Part shown: positions 5,814-64,000 of the stretch, in pieces
Layout: each line of letters starts with the position of its first letter
Numbering within the stretch: position 1 is the first letter of the stretch
Origin: Candidatus Kerfeldbacteria bacterium
GTDB taxonomy: Bacteria > Patescibacteriota > Patescibacteriia > SBBC01 > CAIJZX01
DNA length: 64,000 nucleotides
Direction of reading: 5' to 3'
NCBI GenBank assembly: GCA_903825245.1
Contig: CAIJZX010000012.1
Location: 12,059-76,058 of the forward strand
Notes under the pieces: model-generated
Told to the model about the DNA's origin: nothing
Seen by the model: only the letters and a program-made list of their open reading frames with translations
Databases searched by the model: none
Program-made: the position numbers and the translations under genes

Positions 5814-6946
5814 ATTCTTTTCGTGCTCCGAACGGTTTGCCGAGAAATATTCATAATCACCCCAACCGCGGCCAACGAAATAATCAGCGCTGATCCACCC
5901 TGACTCATGAACGGTAACGGAATACCCGTGAGCGGCATCAAGCCACTCAGCGCGGCGATATTCAAAAACGCCTGGAGTCCCAGCCAAACAGTTATTCCGA
6001 TGGCCAATAATCGCCCAAATTGATCTGGCGCGTTGCGAGCAATACGTAATCCGCGAAAAATCAGGAAGAGCCAAATACAAATGAACAAGACGGCAAAGAG
6101 AAATCCTAATTCTTCAGCGGTCACGGCAAAAATTGAATCGCCGGCTGGCTCCGGAAGATAATTAAATTTCTGACGCGAGTGGCCTAAACCCAATCCAAAC
6201 CAACCACCTGAGCCAATCGCCAGTAAGGCTTGGCTAATATGGTACCCGCTTCCCTGGGGGTCAATACTCGGATTGAGAAAAACCGTCAACCGTTGCGCGC
6301 GATACGGAGAAACTTTTACCGCTAAGAGTAACAACGCCACGCCACCAGTTGCCACCCACGAAAGATATTTTATGGATCCGCCAGCAGTAAAGTACACTGA
6401 CACCGACATCAAAACAATAATGATTGTTGTTCCTAAATCAGGTTGTAAGAGTACCAATCCAGCCACCACTCCCAGAGTCATCAGGAATGGGACTAATCCT
6501 TCGCGCGCGCTTCCCATTAAATGGTTCCGGCGCTCAAACCAGGCGGCCAAGTAAAAGAGAAATGTGAGCTTCGCTAACTCACTGGGCTGAAAGAGCGTCA
6601 CTCCCAGGTTAATCCAGCGATGTGCGCCGAGTAGTGATGAGCCAATGCCGGGAATAAAAACCGCTAACAGCAAAACAATTGTGCCAATCATCATGTGGAC
6701 TGTCCACTTTTTCCAACGCTGGTAATCGATGCTATAGGTGACCGCAAAAAAAACTAAGCCCACCAGTAAACTTATCGCTTGCTTTTTCAAGAAGTAATTA
6801 CTATCGCCAAAGTGTTGAAATCCCAACACCGATCCAGCGCTCGAGAGCATTACCAACCCAAAAACAATCAAGATGGCAATCAAACTGAGGTAGACGTAAT
6901 CCGGTTGATGGTGATGCGATGAGCTCATGGAAGTGCCTTGATGCAT
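5810..6946 (-). CDS. ftsW: SEDS-family peptidoglycan glycosyltransferase FtsW
   Basis: Polytopic FtsW/RodA-type sequence lying between murD and murG. An alternative ATG at 6928 forms an ATGA overlap with the murD stop. Confidence 0.85.
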   Translation of the reverse strand: MHQGTSMSSSHHHQPDYVYLSLIAILIVFGLVMLSSAGSVLGFQHFGDSNYFLKKQAISLLVGLVFFAVTYSIDYQRWKKWTVHMMIGTIVLLLAVFIPGIGSSLLGAHRWINLGVTLFQPSELAKLTFLFYLAAWFERRNHLMGSAREGLVPFLMTLGVVAGLVLLQPDLGTTIIIVLMSVSVYFTAGGSIKYLSWVATGGVALLLLAVKVSPYRAQRLTVFLNPSIDPQGSGYHISQALLAIGSGGWFGLGLGHSRQKFNYLPEPAGDSIFAVTAEELGFLFAVLFICIWLFLIFRGLRIARNAPDQFGRLLAIGITVWLGLQAFLNIAALSGLMPLTGIPLPFMSQGGSALIISLAAVGVIMNISRQTVRSTKRI

Positions 6947-58103: not shown

Positions 58104-59309
58104 TTACTTCCCGAGAATCGCATTGAGGATCTTCATCCGCGTCACAAAGATCGCCGGTATTAAACCGGATATCAGCGCCACTAACATAATCGCTTCCGCG
58201 CGTAAAATGTAGTCGGTTGGATTGATGACGAGCACCGCATCACAAATCGGTAAGACGAACGGATGAATTTGGAAGTATGGTACGATAATGCCGAAGAATA
58301 ACGCAGTTCCAACCAAGACACCGGCAAATGAATAGACCGCCGATTGTAAGACGTAGGCCATGCGGATAATCCACGGCTTTATTCCTATTGCACGGAGAAT
58401 ACCGATTTGTCGCTTCTTATTCGTGATGTCGATATAAATGACGATAAAAATGGTAATGGCCGCGATTAAAATTCCGACGAAGGAAATAATGACATTGATG
58501 CTTAAGAAGCTCTTCGTAACAGATTTAATTAGTCCAGCCGCATCATGCCAGGTATCAAACGTACCTTGCACACCATTAGCTTTCAAGGCGGCAATCGTCG
58601 CGTCTTCACGCCCGGTTTTATTGATCCGCACCAATATGGACGTAGCCTTATCGGTCAAGGTCGGCGCCAATTCTTTCAACGCCGCTTCGGACACAAAGAT
58701 ACGCGAATCGGCATTGACGAACTTTGTATTAAAAATACCACGAATAGTAAAGGTCTTCGTGCCGGTCGGCATAATCAGTTCCAACGTTTCACCAACGTGC
58801 GCACCTTTGAATGATGTGGAGTTCAGCTCCACGTCCGGTCCGCCGGCAACCTGAATGCCAATCATCACACCGTCGGTATCATTTGCGCTCAGGTACTTTC
58901 CCTCAATCATGTGTGTCGAAATATCCGACACCGTTTTTTCATCATTCGGATTGATCGCGAGTATTGGCCGACTGAGGTGAAGCGTCTTGTAGTGCAATGT
59001 CGCAGATACTTGTGTTTGAGCACTCGCACCAACAACGTTTGTCGTTCGTCGGATTGTTGCCACCACATTACTAGCGTTGCCAATATAATCCTGATTCGTT
59101 AGCGGATTTACAATAACGTGGCCGGTCAACGCATTAATGATTTGATTATTACTGCCGTCGACAATACCGTTGAACAACGACGTGATGAACACTAAATTAA
59201 TGAAGGCAATCGCCATCAGAAAAATCGTTAAACTCAATGTCCACTTGTTACTGCGCGTGATGAAGCGCCAGATAAGGAAGAACGGGATTTTCAGTTCATT
59301 CCGCTTCAT
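58104..59309 (-). CDS. ABC transporter permease, FtsX/MacB/LolC family
   Basis: 401 aa: N-terminal TM, large extracytoplasmic domain, then 3 C-terminal TM, which is the FtsX-like arrangement. Confidence 0.8.
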   Translation of the reverse strand: MKRNELKIPFFLIWRFITRSNKWTLSLTIFLMAIAFINLVFITSLFNGIVDGSNNQIINALTGHVIVNPLTNQDYIGNASNVVATIRRTTNVVGASAQTQVSATLHYKTLHLSRPILAINPNDEKTVSDISTHMIEGKYLSANDTDGVMIGIQVAGGPDVELNSTSFKGAHVGETLELIMPTGTKTFTIRGIFNTKFVNADSRIFVSEAALKELAPTLTDKATSILVRINKTGREDATIAALKANGVQGTFDTWHDAAGLIKSVTKSFLSINVIISFVGILIAAITIFIVIYIDITNKKRQIGILRAIGIKPWIIRMAYVLQSAVYSFAGVLVGTALFFGIIVPYFQIHPFVLPICDAVLVINPTDYILRAEAIMLVALISGLIPAIFVTRMKILNAILGK

Positions 59310-60001
59310 ACATTCCTCCGTTCATCACGCACAACTTTTCCGTCGGCCATCTCTACCAATCGATTGGCATGGATCGTCTCATCTTGTTCATGTGTCACCA
59401 TCACAATCGTGTGCCCGGCATCACGATTGAGGTGACGAAAAATACCGAGCACCTCCTTCGCCGCCACCGAATCAAGGTTCGCCGTCGGTTCATCAGCAAA
59501 CAAAATCATTGGATCATTGATCAATGCGCGAGCGATCGCGATTTTCTGTTGTTGGCCACCAGAAAGCTGACTTGGTAAATGCGTCGCATGATCTTCAAGG
59601 CCGAATTGCTTCAACATAGCCAAGGCTTTTTCCTTCGCTGCCTTAAACGACCCGAGCATCATCGCCGGCAACATGATATTTTCCAAAGCCGACAATTCTG
59701 CGATCAATGCATACTCTTGAAAAATATATCCGAGTTTCTGTAGTCGTAATTCGGTTCGCTCATACTTCTTCAACTTCGTTACATCGTGACCATTGATGAT
59801 AATTTCACCACTATCCGGTCGATCGAGAACAGCCAGGTTATGCATCAACGTCGACTTCCCTGCCCCGTTGCGTCCGGTAATCACGACGAAATCACCACGA
59901 TTGATATCAATGGTAACGTGCTCCAACGCATGTACAGAAACCTCGCCCAGATGGTAGGTTTTCGTCAGATCCTTAGCGATAATGAGCGACGATATGTCCA
60001 T
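59306..60001 (-). CDS. ABC transporter ATP-binding protein (MacB/LolD-like)
   Basis: Walker A GRNGAGKST, signature LSGGQQQKIAIARAL and Walker B ILFADEPT. Start at ATG 60001 (MDISS). Confidence 0.85.
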   Translation of the reverse strand: MDISSLIIAKDLTKTYHLGEVSVHALEHVTIDINRGDFVVITGRNGAGKSTLMHNLAVLDRPDSGEIIINGHDVTKLKKYERTELRLQKLGYIFQEYALIAELSALENIMLPAMMLGSFKAAKEKALAMLKQFGLEDHATHLPSQLSGGQQQKIAIARALINDPMILFADEPTANLDSVAAKEVLGIFRHLNRDAGHTIVMVTHEQDETIHANRLVEMADGKVVRDERRNV

Positions 60002-60098
60002 ATTTTCTTCGCCCTGAAGTGTAGCCGTCTTAGACATAATAATCAAGACATGACAAACCAAAAACCCACCTTGCGGTGGGCTCGTGGTTTAAAATCCT

Positions 60099-60271
60099 TA
60101 GTAGCGTCGTGGGCGATCATTACCGAACGCTTTGCGTTGCGGTTTGTGCTCGCGGCAGTACACTGGACGTTGCGGGGTCCCGTCTGGGTTCATGGCCGGT
60201 TGAAACGGAAGCTCGGTGATGGCCGTGCCACAAGTGGCGCAGGTCAAATTCAACGAGGTTACGTCGATCAT
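60099..60271 (-). CDS. Tiny hypothetical Cys-motif protein (57 aa)
   Basis: MIDVTSLNLTCATCGTAITELPF...YCREH (C-x2-C ... C-x2-H). The ATG overlaps the stop of the upstream tiny ORF (ATGA). Confidence 0.3.
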
Positions 60272-60471
60272 CGGTCGGGGACCGCCTTGGTTGTAATCCA
60301 TGGTGGGCTTTTCGTGATGTGAATGAAGTGTGGGTCGACTTCGAAAGCCCGTTGTACTGCGTCTTGATCCGGCTCGGCCGGATAATCTGCGTTCGTAGCT
60401 TCTTTGTCCCAACGCGGGCAAGGATAGCAGAAGACGTGATTTTTGTCAACCCCCATACCAATTTGGGGCAA
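60268..60471 (-). CDS. Tiny hypothetical CxxC protein (62-67 aa)
   Basis: MPQIGMGVDKNHVFCYPCPRWDKE... with an acidic, protein-like composition. It lies upstream of and is coupled to the 57-aa ORF. Confidence 0.3.
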   Translation of the reverse strand: MPQIGMGVDKNHVFCYPCPRWDKEATNADYPAEPDQDAVQRAFEVDPHFIHITKSPPWITTKAVPDR

Positions 60472-60615
60472 TCATATGGCTTTCGAAGCCATTTTTGAAC
60501 CTCTAAAGCATTTTATAAAAAACCCTTTTCGGTCAATTGGTGTGGAGGTCAATAGCTGAGGGTTTTTGGGGAAAGAAAAACCGCCATGTTGCCATAGCGA
60601 ATACTTATTTTATGA

Positions 60616-60975
60616 CTACTTCTGCGGCGGTGGAACCTTCTTCCAGTCGCCACCAGCGTTGTGCACCCAGCCGGTACCGTCAAGTTCGACGATACGATTG
60701 CTGGCAAGCACCACCTTGATGTGCTTGACCCCTACCACCAACGGCAGGTGGCCGCTCTTGACCCAGCCATTCAAGGTCAGATCGTATAGATCACCGTTAT
60801 CGAACAGAACGGCCGTCCCCCCACCCATGACCGGCAACCGTTCGAGATCCGGCTGTCCGTCATACACTTGGTCGGCGCGAGCAGAAGTCGGGCTGACTTG
60901 TGTTGGCATCTTCGTCATCAGACCAATCATCAACAATCCGCCGACGATCAGCACAAGAATGAACATCCTCTTCAT
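60616..60975 (-). CDS. Small secreted hypothetical protein
   Basis: MKRMFILVLIVGGLLMIGLMT signal/anchor sequence, then a ~95-aa domain. The opposite-strand ORF 60566..61036 is S/P-rich and judged spurious. Confidence 0.45.
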   Translation of the reverse strand: MKRMFILVLIVGGLLMIGLMTKMPTQVSPTSARADQVYDGQPDLERLPVMGGGTAVLFDNGDLYDLTLNGWVKSGHLPLVVGVKHIKVVLASNRIVELDGTGWVHNAGGDWKKVPPPQK

Positions 60976-61185
60976 TTTGATCTCCCAGGTTCGAGAAAGC
61001 AACCACCACGCACATCAAAATACTGGTAGAACTTAGGATATTTTGGATATTTTGTCAATGACCGCTTAATTTTTGTCGTTCTGGAAAACTTCGTGTACAC
61101 TATAGCCATGTTCATCGGCTGTATAGATGACGGGTTTATAACAAAAACACCGGAGGCGTATACCGCAGGGCGGAAAATTATGTAC

Positions 61186-61578
61186 CTATTTTTTTACAAT
61201 ATCCATCCACAATCCTGCCACCAAGGCCACGATTGAGGAAGCAAAAATAACATAGTAATTCCACTTTTCTCGCGATGACTGCAAGGTAGCGAACAAATAA
61301 TCCAACCCGGCGCGATCGGTATCGGACAGTTCTTTCAACTGCGGAATTTTTTCGGCGAGTTTCAATTCCTTGATAACTCGCGACCGACGCTTTGCAATGT
61401 CATAGCGGTGCAAGAAATAAATGACGAAACCAACTGTACCAACATACCAAATCACCCGCAGTACGACCGGATTGGCACTGGTGAAAAAGATAATTGCCCG
61501 ATAGAGAATCGTAGCGACAATCCCCGTCCAAAAGAAAAAGGCACGCGTTGCTGATCGATGCAGTGTTGGAAGCTCCAT
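61186..61578 (-). CDS. Hypothetical 3-TM membrane protein co-transcribed 6 nt downstream of the heliorhodopsin
   Basis: Three hydrophobic helices plus a charged amphipathic segment (KRRSRVIKELKLAEKIPQLKELSDTDRAGLDYL). No family recognised. Confidence 0.5.
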   Translation of the reverse strand: MELPTLHRSATRAFFFWTGIVATILYRAIIFFTSANPVVLRVIWYVGTVGFVIYFLHRYDIAKRRSRVIKELKLAEKIPQLKELSDTDRAGLDYLFATLQSSREKWNYYVIFASSIVALVAGLWMDIVKK

Positions 61579-61584
61579 AGCCGA

Positions 61585-62352
61585 TTAGACTGGACGTAAC
61601 GTGCCGGCAAATACTTGCCAAGCGAGCAACGACTTCGCTACCAAACTTAACACTAAATATGTTTTTTCACCGTACAGGTAATCCGTCCATTTCCCGATTT
61701 TCTTGTATTGTAGAATCATATTGATCTCGAAACAATTGAAGAACAAGAAAATGGAAAGATAAATCCAATAGACAAACGTCGGTGCTTTGTCAGTCGGGCC
61801 GAATAAGTATATACCGATTACAATCCACGGAATTATTCCGGCGATCGAACCAAAAATAAACGCCGTCCAATCTGTTTTCGACGTAGTCTGATTATGAACC
61901 TCCATCATCCAACCGAACAGAATCATCATGGCGTTAACACCGAAGAGGCAAATGATGGTCGCGATATCGTAGATGCCGACGAGCATGGCGATAATGACAA
62001 TCATCAACGACGAGGAGAAACTGTATTCAATCCATCGCGCCAGGTTCATTCCCTTTTGTAAATTGCCAACGTACCACTCATAGATACCAGGCATCGACAC
62101 CAAGAAGTGCGCCACCGATGACAAAAACAAAAAACCAGCAACGAGTGGACCGATACGTAATTCAGCCAATGTCGACAATACCGGCGTGAGCTTTTGTGTG
62201 GCCGTATCAAAATGCAGAAAGGCCGCCGTTACTGGTAAGGCAAACTTGGAACTGAGCGCCAACATGGCCACGCCCTGAACGGCGTGCAATATTGCCATAG
62301 AAATATTCCAGGTACGCAGATTTTTAAATTTTGCTTCGAGTGTATTTGGCAT
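61585..62352 (-). CDS. Heliorhodopsin (7-TM retinal protein, inverted topology)
   Basis: By-eye alignment with heliorhodopsin 48C12: ARWIEYSFSSSLMIVIIA against RWVEYSLSSSVMIVLIA (counterion Glu); FGVNAMMILFGW against FGVNASMILFGW; IAGIIPWIVIGIYLFGP; GEKTYLVLSLVAKSLLAWQVFAGTL against GERAYIVLSLVAKSALAWQIFSGTL (Schiff-base Lys). Both conserved His are present (AILHAVQ, VAHFLVS). Start at ATG 62352 (MPNTLEAKF). Confidence 0.85.
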   Translation of the reverse strand: MPNTLEAKFKNLRTWNISMAILHAVQGVAMLALSSKFALPVTAAFLHFDTATQKLTPVLSTLAELRIGPLVAGFLFLSSVAHFLVSMPGIYEWYVGNLQKGMNLARWIEYSFSSSLMIVIIAMLVGIYDIATIICLFGVNAMMILFGWMMEVHNQTTSKTDWTAFIFGSIAGIIPWIVIGIYLFGPTDKAPTFVYWIYLSIFLFFNCFEINMILQYKKIGKWTDYLYGEKTYLVLSLVAKSLLAWQVFAGTLRPV

Positions 62353-62387
62353 ACATGTATGTTTGTAAATATGTTCTCGTGATTTGT

Positions 62388-62396
62388 AGTATATCA
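62388..62396 (-). promoter_or_regulatory. Candidate extended -10 promoter (TGATATACT) upstream of the heliorhodopsin
   Basis: rc of agtatatca at 62388-62396, lying 36-44 nt before the heliorhodopsin ATG. No good -35. Confidence 0.3.
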
Positions 62397-62404
62397 CATT
62401 CCGA

Positions 62405-62941
62405 TTAGCGCCGATACTTCGCGTAGACGAGTAAGTCCAACCACTTCTGTCCTTTCCGCACCGCGTGAATTTCGTTCGCTGTTCTATAAAATCCGGATTT
62501 TTCTAAGACGCGACCCGAAGCGGGGTTATTCAGTAATGTCCGTCCAATCACTCGTACCACCGGCCACCAAGAAAAAACAAATGGAACGAATTTCCGTACA
62601 ACTTTCGTCATTCTTCCTTGACCCCAATATGCTGGCGTCAGCCAGTAACCGATCTCCGCTTCATCGCCGTGACGACTCGCGCTGACCGCACCGATGACTT
62701 CCTGACCACACGTAATCACATAGTGCCGTTCATTCACCGGTCGTTGGCGGTACCGCCGTCGACACAACTGAATCCAGGTGACTGCATCGCGTCGCCGATA
62801 CGGATACGGCATGGAGGCGGTCATGACAGCAATATCCGGAACATTTGCCGCTCGACGGAGCGATTCAACATCCGTCGTTTGATATTCGCGAATAGTCATT
62901 CCGGAAACACTGAACACCGTTGGCACTAAAGAATATTTCAT
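62405..62941 (-). CDS. GNAT family N-acetyltransferase (RimJ/RimL-like)
   Basis: VIGAVSASRHGDEAEIGYWLTPAYWGQGRMTKVV and NPASGRVLEKSGF are GNAT motifs A and B. Confidence 0.75.
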   Translation of the reverse strand: MKYSLVPTVFSVSGMTIREYQTTDVESLRRAANVPDIAVMTASMPYPYRRRDAVTWIQLCRRRYRQRPVNERHYVITCGQEVIGAVSASRHGDEAEIGYWLTPAYWGQGRMTKVVRKFVPFVFSWWPVVRVIGRTLLNNPASGRVLEKSGFYRTANEIHAVRKGQKWLDLLVYAKYRR

Positions 62942-63190
62942 TTAGTGGAGGTGAATACCGTGCCACCGCCGTCCATCAATATACACCACGCGGTACCATA
63001 ACTGACCAATAAAATATCCGGCGACCAAACCGATTCCGATACACACCCAGAACCAGACATTAATAATGTTTAACAGGTCATTCAATACAGCAAAGTAAAT
63101 TTGCATACAAACACTAACAAGTGCCCAGAGTATCATCGAGCTCAAGATATACACTGGCTTTTTCCAATCAGGCTGAGGTATTGGGGTCAT
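62942..63190 (-). CDS. Small 2-TM hypothetical protein
   Basis: 82 aa with two hydrophobic helices, sandwiched between the hypothetical and GNAT genes with 0-3 nt gaps. Confidence 0.35.
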   Translation of the reverse strand: MTPIPQPDWKKPVYILSSMILWALVSVCMQIYFAVLNDLLNIINVWFWVCIGIGLVAGYFIGQLWYRVVYIDGRRWHGIHLH

Positions 63191-63193
63191 AAG

Positions 63194-63985
63194 TTATTGT
63201 GTAACATTAATAAGTGGCCTGGCCGGTGCTGTCACGGTCGCGTTTCCGGTAGTAGCCGATGGAAGGATTGTGGTATCGGTCCCGGTAAGCAACGATTCAA
63301 TCAATGGCACGACGACACCTTTTTGATACAAGGTAACACTAATCGGCACATCCTTCACCGCAAACCACAGTGCAGGCACGAGATAATCTGTACCGTCATT
63401 CGAAAGTTGATATGAGCTGATCATGTATACCGGGGTTGGCGCAGAGAGTGGAACGCCGTTCGTTGTTCCGTCGACCGAAGCTGGTTGATAGAGTCCGCCG
63501 CGCTTCGCTACTGCCAACACCGCCGCCGGATCAGTCACGAGCGAATATTGCGATGCCGTAAACTGCAGATCCGTGATATTGGAAGCGCCGGAAACTGATT
63601 GTGTGGCGCTATCTATCGTGATGGTTAGGCCATAGGGAAATCCGCTTTGGTCGACAACTGGCGTTCCCTGCACTATCCATGGATACACCACTGAAATCAC
63701 TGGTGAGTACACGATCGTATCCGTCGCTTGAGCCATCGGCATCGTGAAGTAATTGTCATCCTCTACGATCGGCGTTCCAAAATGTTCTTTGGATATTCCG
63801 TGGGCATCGAGGAATGTTTGGGCAATCGTCAGAGCTTCGGTGGAAGACAGTGTTGAACCGCTATTCACTGACGATGGCATCATTTTTTCATTCGTCACAA
63901 ATGATTGACGATACAGTGACGTCGTACCGCGCTGTGTGTCGATGGATATGGTATACCCATCGCTTCCCTGCTCAGTCAGAGTCAT
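63194..63985 (-). CDS. Hypothetical T/S-rich protein, probably 5'-incomplete (the frame stays open to the window end)
   Basis: No signal peptide at the listed Met. The frame is open through 64000. The protein is beta-rich and likely secreted. Confidence 0.4.
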   Translation of the reverse strand: MTLTEQGSDGYTISIDTQRGTTSLYRQSFVTNEKMMPSSVNSGSTLSSTEALTIAQTFLDAHGISKEHFGTPIVEDDNYFTMPMAQATDTIVYSPVISVVYPWIVQGTPVVDQSGFPYGLTITIDSATQSVSGASNITDLQFTASQYSLVTDPAAVLAVAKRGGLYQPASVDGTTNGVPLSAPTPVYMISSYQLSNDGTDYLVPALWFAVKDVPISVTLYQKGVVVPLIESLLTGTDTTILPSATTGNATVTAPARPLINVTQ

Positions 63986-64000
63986 AGAATCTAAACGGAG

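Follow-up and report, generated by a model that had tools for sequence, protein, structure and literature searches.

The window analysed here, a 64,000-nucleotide stretch of Candidatus Kerfeldbacteria DNA, carries on its minus strand a bona fide heliorhodopsin gene (HeR, 61585..62352, 255 aa) in a Patescibacteria genome. The gene is the fourth of five arranged in the order p263, p82, GNAT, HeR and p130, with intergenic gaps of 3, 0, 52 and 6 nt; p263, p82 and p130 denote the flanking proteins. We propose that this heliorhodopsin, termed HeR-A, was inserted into the transcription unit of p130 (61186..61578, minus strand), that p130 is independent of HeR, and that the p82-like family is the best-supported accessory candidate among the neighbours. 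We give this reading, which is drawn from sequence comparison, a probability of roughly two in three (about 0.68).

Results

Genomic contexts of p130

p130 is predicted to be a three-transmembrane (3-TM) protein with a basic helical cytoplasmic sub-domain between TM2 and TM3. Twelve contexts of its homologues besides the window were read (comparison loci are designated Lnnn, and the p130 orthologue in the relatives is labelled p129). Only in L089 (p130 87% identical) and in L174/L175 (90%) does a HeR lie 3 nt upstream of p130; in the window the spacing is 6 nt. Three relatives, L087 (84%), L001 (81%) and L178 (78%), have a different heliorhodopsin, HeR-B, 1.4-3.5 kb downstream of p130 and beside a p100-DUF1648-asparaginase block. 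The same backbone is present in L176 (81%) and L177 (82%) with no HeR within 8 kb, and the more distant homologues in L090 (71%), L003 (54%), L092 (54%) and L006 (46%) have no HeR within the 6-8 kb retrieved on their flanks. Only genomes with a p130 at least 87% identical to that of the window carry HeR-A, and relatives at 78-84% have HeR-B elsewhere or no HeR.

The converse sample drew 80 HeR loci each from GTDB species representatives and from JGI metagenomes; their HeRs are mostly 50-71% identical to the window HeR. Neither tblastn nor a hidden Markov model (HMM) of the p130 family (E<=1) detected a p130 homologue in any of these 160 other loci, and the genes downstream of their HeRs are heterogeneous. 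Since p130 occurs without HeR in relatives and none of the 160 HeR loci has p130, we infer that p130 is conserved independently of HeR and that its job does not depend on HeR. The adjacency of the two genes is lineage-specific and may be incidental.

A shared extended -10 element

An extended -10 element, TGATATACT, is located 35 nt 5' of the HeR ATG (62388..62396, reading 62396-62388 on the minus strand) and is the only TGNTATACT in the window. Its counterparts are TGCTATGCT in L089 and TGCTATCCT in L175, both within otherwise diverged spacers, and in all three loci the element sits 24-35 nt before the HeR-A ATG. An earlier note, made from the letters of this DNA, had suggested that HeR possesses an extended -10 of its own, and the uniqueness and conservation of the element bear this out. 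A consensus sigma-70 scan returned no more sites than shuffled sequence and overlooked the element, because a two-hexamer scan misses an extended -10 that has no -35.

In the sister genomes L087, L176 and L178 no HeR separates the GNAT gene from p129, which follows it directly at a distance of 27-48 nt. The same type of element stands before p129 in five relatives: the distance from the end of TGnTATACT or TGATACACT to the p129 ATG is 6-16 nt in L001 (TGATATACT), L087 and L177 (both TGGTATACT), L176 (TGCTATACT) and L178 (TGATACACT). The relaxed motif occurs 26 times in 128 kb (the window, both strands), which gives a chance of about 0.6% per locus of finding it in a defined 30-nt slot. In L001, L087 and L177 the element ends merely 6-7 nt before the p129 ATG (for example L177:5460-5476). 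Such spacing would leave the p130 mRNA with little or no leader in genomes that lack a HeR ahead of p130.

As the same promoter type is found before p130 where HeR is lacking, and before HeR-A in the window subclade, HeR is read as inserted in the p130 unit. The ancestral locus would have consisted of GNAT, the extended -10 promoter and p130. The common ancestor of the genomes whose p130 is at least 87% identical would have acquired HeR-A at a point 3' of the promoter position and 5' of the p130 start codon. HeR and p130 would now be bicistronic and transcribed from the conserved TGnTATnCT extended -10. Read-through from p263-p82-GNAT into the pair is possible, and translation of HeR and p130 may be coupled across the 3-6 nt spacer.

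The p82-like family

p82 (62942..63190, minus strand) was delineated from its open reading frame (ORF) and hydropathy as an 82-aa, 2-TM protein. No other flanking gene has a family that recurs beside divergent HeRs. Homologues were sought among the ORFs of every fetched locus, by jackhmmer with p82 as query and with an HMM from the 54-cluster family. A total of 5.8 billion sequences yielded 54 clusters of this small family, and wherever an organism is named it belongs to Patescibacteria or Parcubacteria. The proteins are about 100 aa long with two TM helices, an N-terminal PxNPTKxKHxxYL and a C-terminal GRxWWRxVYVERRW, the latter also written GxxWW(R)xVYVE.RRW. Across the 54 clusters there was no Pfam match and no fusion, to HeR or otherwise.

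p82-like ORFs are found 83-1196 nt upstream, and on the same strand, of HeRs that are 52-83% identical to that of the window. In L089 the p82-like gene is followed by GNAT and HeR-A. In L108 (521-757) it lies 83 nt before a HeR 81% identical to the window HeR, and in L012 (7174-7491) and L111 (690-995) it lies 497 and 254 nt, respectively, before HeRs that are 61-65% identical. In L031 (6493-6786) a Bro-N gene intervenes before a HeR of 57% identity, and in L087 (8980-9303; L087/L088) a DUF4342 gene intervenes before HeR-B. The genes between p82-like gene and HeR thus vary by lineage (a GNAT of another type, Bro-N, DUF4342 or none). The domain of the Bro-N gene (L031:6905-7789) is typical of mobile elements and phages.

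These data raise the possibility, tentative but compatible with insertion of HeR-A, that the p82-like 2-TM family is an accessory subunit of HeR in a subset of Patescibacteria. The protein would be a membrane hairpin contacting HeR, loosely like the TM hairpin of the sensory-rhodopsin transducer. The evidence for this can be summarised as (i) the p82-like gene is upstream of HeR in five lineages (window/L089, L108, L012/L111, L031 and L087) despite their differing other neighbours; (ii) chance co-location in loci selected for HeR is unlikely, because the family is small and its named members all belong to Patescibacteria or Parcubacteria; (iii) L012 and L111 share 92.5% DNA identity over HeR and the gene that follows it and only 68% in the p82-like gene, and here the intervening GNAT comes and goes (L012:7470-7931 versus L111:966-1233) while the p82-like gene stays. 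However, most fetched Patescibacteria HeR loci have no p82-like ORF, L177 has one (6505-6753) in a locus without HeR, and the contexts of about 45 of the 54 clusters lie outside the sample. The lack of any fusion to HeR also counts against the proposal, as does window p82 itself, a shortened and divergent member without the conserved H/E/C/H loop of the family. Among the neighbours of HeR the p82-like protein has the best comparative support as an accessory, but the link is a lead and not a result.

The earlier note had singled out both small membrane genes for conservation beside heliorhodopsins in related genomes. The p82-like family is found there in five lineages, although it is absent from most HeR loci, whereas p130 does not recur beside HeR outside one subclade.

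Two heliorhodopsin lineages and the direction of change

HeR-A comprises the proteins of the window, L089 and L174/L175, which are 83-90% identical among themselves. HeR-B is represented by L087:9747-10472, L001:9569-10375 and L178:4492-5217 (79-81% identical). The two types share only 52-54% identity, whereas HeR-A is nearer (65-71%) to other Patescibacteria HeRs, so they represent separate lineages. In sister genomes they are found at different sites, all no more than about 4 kb from p130, and they never occur together in the sampled contexts. This pattern suggests replacement or a hotspot.

The surroundings of p130 and HeR in the relatives repeatedly contain genes for MsrA, PspC, glyoxalase, MscL, Tag and a Y-family polymerase, and they may represent a hotspot for insertions or a stress island. 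The MsrA gene lies 0-2 kb downstream of p130 in L176 (8387-8944), L177 (5879-6418), L178 (1335-1901) and L174 (3157-3699). Among the immediate upstream neighbours of other HeRs (135 distinct sequences), three are PMSR and two SelR, consistent with the published oxidative-stress association.

The order promoter, HeR-A, p130 could instead be ancestral, with HeR-A precisely deleted in the relatives. A clean deletion would leave the identical pattern, in which one promoter type precedes either HeR-A or p130, and HeR gain and loss are frequent (PMC8612252). Loss, however, needs several independent precise deletions where a single gain, in the subclade whose p130 is 87-100% identical, would suffice, and lineages without HeR-A often bear HeR-B at another site. 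On parsimony loss is rated below insertion, which would be the simplest reading, and we consider loss unlikely.

p130 as a proposed dedicated partner

It is less probable still that p130 is a dedicated membrane-embedded partner or transducer of HeR, with which it evolved as a functional pair. In the window, L089 and L174/L175 the p130 start codon has stayed 3-6 nt from the HeR stop, and both membrane proteins are constrained (83-90% identity, against 51-57% for the upstream genes). The basic cytoplasmic helical domain of p130 and the second HeR type lying 1.4-3.5 kb from p130 in L087, L001 and L178 also fit a partnership. The proposal of a conserved partner or transducer, made in the earlier note, finds little support in the comparison. 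Orthologues of p130 at 81-82% identity (L176, L177) have no HeR within 8 kb, nor is there one near the four homologues at 71-46%. None of the 160 other HeR loci contains a match to the p130 HMM, and the heterogeneity of the genes downstream of other HeRs also speaks against partnership. p130 has its own promoter where no HeR comes first, and it carries no signalling domain.

Some of these observations, with others, weigh against the reading that HeR-A was inserted beside an independent p130. The 3-6 nt spacing in three sampled lineages and the 83-90% versus 51-57% conservation would also be expected of a functional pair. In six of the eight clade contexts a HeR of some kind lies no more than 3.5 kb from p130, more often than random placement in a roughly 1-Mb genome would predict, and the two independent placements of HeR within about 4 kb of that gene likewise exceed random insertion. 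The direction of change (gain or loss of HeR-A) is assigned by parsimony across about nine sampled contexts, and the promoter is deduced from sequence conservation. The absence of retinal-synthesis genes described below covers 64 kb of a 140-kb contig, not the genome.

The GNAT gene

The GNAT gene (62405..62941, minus strand) encodes an Acetyltransf_3-type N-acetyltransferase (PF13302, 79.5 bits against a cut-off of 25.4, E 5e-22), a member of the superfamily. Scores against the equivalogs RimL (24.6 bits versus 184) and RimJ (13.9 versus 190) are such that no specific enzyme is assignable. The nearest upstream ORF of each other HeR locus was scanned against Pfam, and GNATs made up two of the 135 distinct sequences (L089 and L012), so that an enrichment of GNATs beside HeRs was rejected. 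The L012 protein is of the Acetyltransf_1 type and has no detectable similarity to the window GNAT (BLASTP E 0.79). In L087, L176 and L178 it is p130 that the window-type GNAT directly precedes, and the gene pairs with p130, not HeR. Functional coupling of GNAT to HeR, for example by light-modulated acetylation, is highly improbable: GNAT adjoins HeR in the window, L089 and L175, and a non-homologous GNAT lies between the p82-like gene and HeR in L012, but GNATs are rare among upstream neighbours, the window type remains beside p130 in loci without an intervening HeR, and the L012 gene is missing from the near-identical L111 locus.

Identity and membrane orientation of the heliorhodopsin

The HeR product matches Pfam PF18761 over profile positions 1-242 of 242 (338.9 bits, cut-off 26.7; E 1.9e-101) and the NCBIfam equivalog NF038020 'heliorhodopsin HeR' (353.3 bits, cut-off 100). 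With both matches far above their cut-offs, the profile search upholds the identification that the earlier note had made by eye. Full-length alignments to solved HeRs (TaHeR 6is6/7clj and 48C12 6su3) have E values of 4e-81 to 7e-66 and run end to end almost without gaps, as befits a seven-TM protein with its N-terminus inside. The best solved relative is TaHeR 6is6 (E 4e-81; 54% identity over 248 aligned residues). The present protein differs from the solved HeRs in its host, a member of the Patescibacteria. Among GTDB species representatives and JGI metagenomes, even the nearest HeRs reach only 65-71% identity to it.

The residues that the earlier note had listed as conserved (the Schiff-base lysine, the counterion glutamate and both signature histidines) were verified in the TaHeR alignment. 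S236 and K240 of SLVAKSLLAW match TaHeR SLVAKSALAW and place the Schiff-base lysine of the SxxxK motif in TM7. E109 (WIEYSF, the TM3 counterion), H23 and H82 coincide with the equivalent TaHeR residues, and the QYKKIGKW cytoplasmic loop is conserved between the window HeR and the solved HeRs. In a crude hydropathy parse that merged TM3 and TM4, with the N-terminus inside, about 10 K/R residues fall on predicted cytoplasmic segments against about 3 outside. We infer the inverted membrane orientation of heliorhodopsins for the window protein. By homology it would be a seven-TM, N-terminus-in, retinal-binding, non-pumping photosensor.

Boundaries of the array and neighbouring features

The whole five-gene order is kept in L089, with protein identities of 51, 51, 57, 83 and 87% for p263, p82, GNAT, HeR and p130; synteny of the flanking small membrane genes, which the earlier note had proposed to look for in relatives, is thus found in the full array of L089. 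The order GNAT-HeR-p130 also occurs in L174/L175. The window HeR ATG at 62352 aligns with the L089 start. Homology between the window and L089 stops at the p130 stop codon. A weak terminator-like hairpin with a T run (61147..61159, minus strand; a consensus match only) lies 27 nt past this codon and is the probable end of the transcription unit; the next gene is 183 nt from p130. An Rfam scan of 60000-64000 returned no match.

At the other end, only the 3' part of p263 is present (63194..64000, minus strand; ORF listed as 63194-63985), with a frame open to base 64000, where the window ends. Its L089 orthologue (417 aa, 51% identity) has an N-terminal hydrophobic signal-anchor, and p263 would be a signal-anchored extracytoplasmic protein. 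A Pfam scan of p263 gave no family match. Given the open frame and the length of the orthologue, the window end cuts off part of the first gene, and the array may reach further upstream. The tight minus-strand array of five ORFs described in the earlier note stands as drawn, except that its 'secreted protein' gene is truncated and encodes, in the L089 orthologue, a signal-anchored protein.

A stand-alone zinc-ribbon ORF (CxxC-x24-CxxH; 60098-60421, minus strand) lies 0.8 kb downstream of p130 and scores slightly under the cut-offs of zf_Tbcl_2 and TIGR04272. In the 'Znf-HeRs' of Thermoplasmatales a CxxC-x17-CxxC ribbon is fused to the HeR N-terminus (Bulzu et al., PMC8612252). A link of the window ORF to HeR was rejected: homologues occur in four archaeal HeR loci (L129, L144, L036 and L137), 0.2-8 kb off, at a rate near chance.

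p130 as a protein family

The 90% database has 50 clusters of the p130 family, and the 50% library has 147 representatives. Across 19 sequences, the most distant at 46% identity, 27 columns are invariant. The AF2 model, a confident one (mean pLDDT 84), has three TM helices and a helical cytoplasmic insert. The earlier note had described a charged amphipathic loop in p130; the region is indeed charged (basic), but is predicted to form a helical cytoplasmic sub-domain, not a loop. A p130 profile had no match among PDB sequences at E<=10, and Pfam gave merely sub-threshold noise (DUF6722, 8xMP), with no informative fold relative. Neither a HAMP or methyl-accepting domain nor any other Pfam domain was found in p130, p82 or their families.

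In P0125, a 265-aa protein of a Fibrobacterota metagenome-assembled genome (MAG), a p130-like domain (residues 143-262) follows an N-terminal rubrerythrin/ferritin-like domain. Distant p130 homologues are located among metal-homeostasis genes: CsoR, a Cu-ATPase and Zip in L006, and ArsR and a cation ATPase in L092. Around the homologue in L003 are a faint VIT1 match, CbiM and Zip. There is a hint here of a metal or redox role for p130, and a hint only of a relation to VIT1-type metal transporters.

Retinal supply

For the 40 window ORFs of at least 200 aa, the Pfam matches are to cell-wall (Mur), type IV pilus and glycosyltransferase genes. Neither these ORFs nor the local genes of the 64-kb window matched BCD/Blh, SQS_PSY, Amino_oxidase or lycopene cyclase, in agreement with the earlier note, which had seen no retinal-synthesis genes there. 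As no retinal pathway is visible in the window, we suggest that HeR would use retinal scavenged from outside. The named p130 and p82 homologues and the nearest HeR loci come from Patescibacteria MAGs. In L090 (8428-11121) the p130 homologue is followed by an ABC1-kinase gene and then by a gene for a 492-aa Amino_oxidase/NAD_binding_8 protein. The latter could be phytoene-desaturase-like, which would bear on carotenoid synthesis in some relatives.

Discussion

Heliorhodopsins of Patescibacteria are already documented, and the present locus adds another together with a modest lead in the p82-like family. Within the candidate phyla radiation (CPR), 115 rhodopsins were reported in 86 genomes, of which 17 are predicted proton pumps and the remainder inferred HeRs (Chiriac et al. 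2022, PMC9166423). The HeRs occur in Saccharimonadia, ABY1, Microgenomatia, Dojkabacteria and other classes (PMC9166423, PMC8612252). Oxidative or light stress sensing has been proposed for them from their neighbours, with glutaredoxin, GSHPx peroxidase, glyoxalase, catalase and histidine kinases highlighted (PMC9166423, PMC8612252). The relatives studied here resemble those loci in the MsrA, glyoxalase, PspC and DNA-repair genes that surround HeR and p130. A term search for 'acetyltransferase' in the same two papers found none.

Ten groups of HeR operons have been described, with glutamine synthetase, NAD+ synthetase (NadE), photolyase, MerR, TerC, an ABC transporter, short-chain dehydrogenase/reductase (SDR), alpha/beta hydrolase, DUF2177 and DUF2238 (Cho et al. 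2024, PMC11109279). The window shares with them the arrangement of a HeR co-transcribed with a neighbour that it may regulate, and two of the ten groups, being small membrane DUFs, offer a precedent for a HeR beside a small membrane protein. It differs in that, of the five genes, only GNAT and HeR have a match in a Pfam scan, and none of the ten families is found. MacB-type ABC genes (58104-60061) do lie downstream, seemingly in a separate transcription unit. They match FtsX/MacB_PCD, unlike the heterodimeric half-transporters OmrDE, in which transmembrane and nucleotide-binding domains are fused (PMC11109279).

The partners demonstrated for HeR in other lineages are glutamine synthetase, photolyase and an ABC exporter (PMC9529153, PMC9769723, PMC11109279). 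By analogy, the present HeR would act through light-dependent protein-protein contacts at its cytoplasmic face. The arrangement recalls SRII-HtrII, as a rhodopsin gene stands beside a small 2-TM (p82) or 3-TM (p130) protein able to pack in the membrane. It differs from SRII-HtrII in the absence of a HAMP or methyl-accepting domain or a fusion, in the opposite orientation of HeR, and in that p130 is unlinked to HeR outside one subclade.

Every HeR partner demonstrated so far is lineage-specific, and this locus adds no general one. If HeR-A was inserted as we propose, the locus would be a worked example of a heliorhodopsin dropped behind an existing promoter, and it cautions against equating operon adjacency with partnership. 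It may also record two HeR lineages replacing one another within about 4 kb in sister genomes. More speculatively, a HeR with a dedicated p82-like accessory in some Patescibacteria, joined by p130 wiring in the window subclade, could form a light-responsive HeR/p82/p130 membrane module; we think this improbable, but if true it would be the first membrane-embedded partner family for heliorhodopsins. The p82-like 2-TM family, specific to Patescibacteria, can be tested directly for HeR binding.

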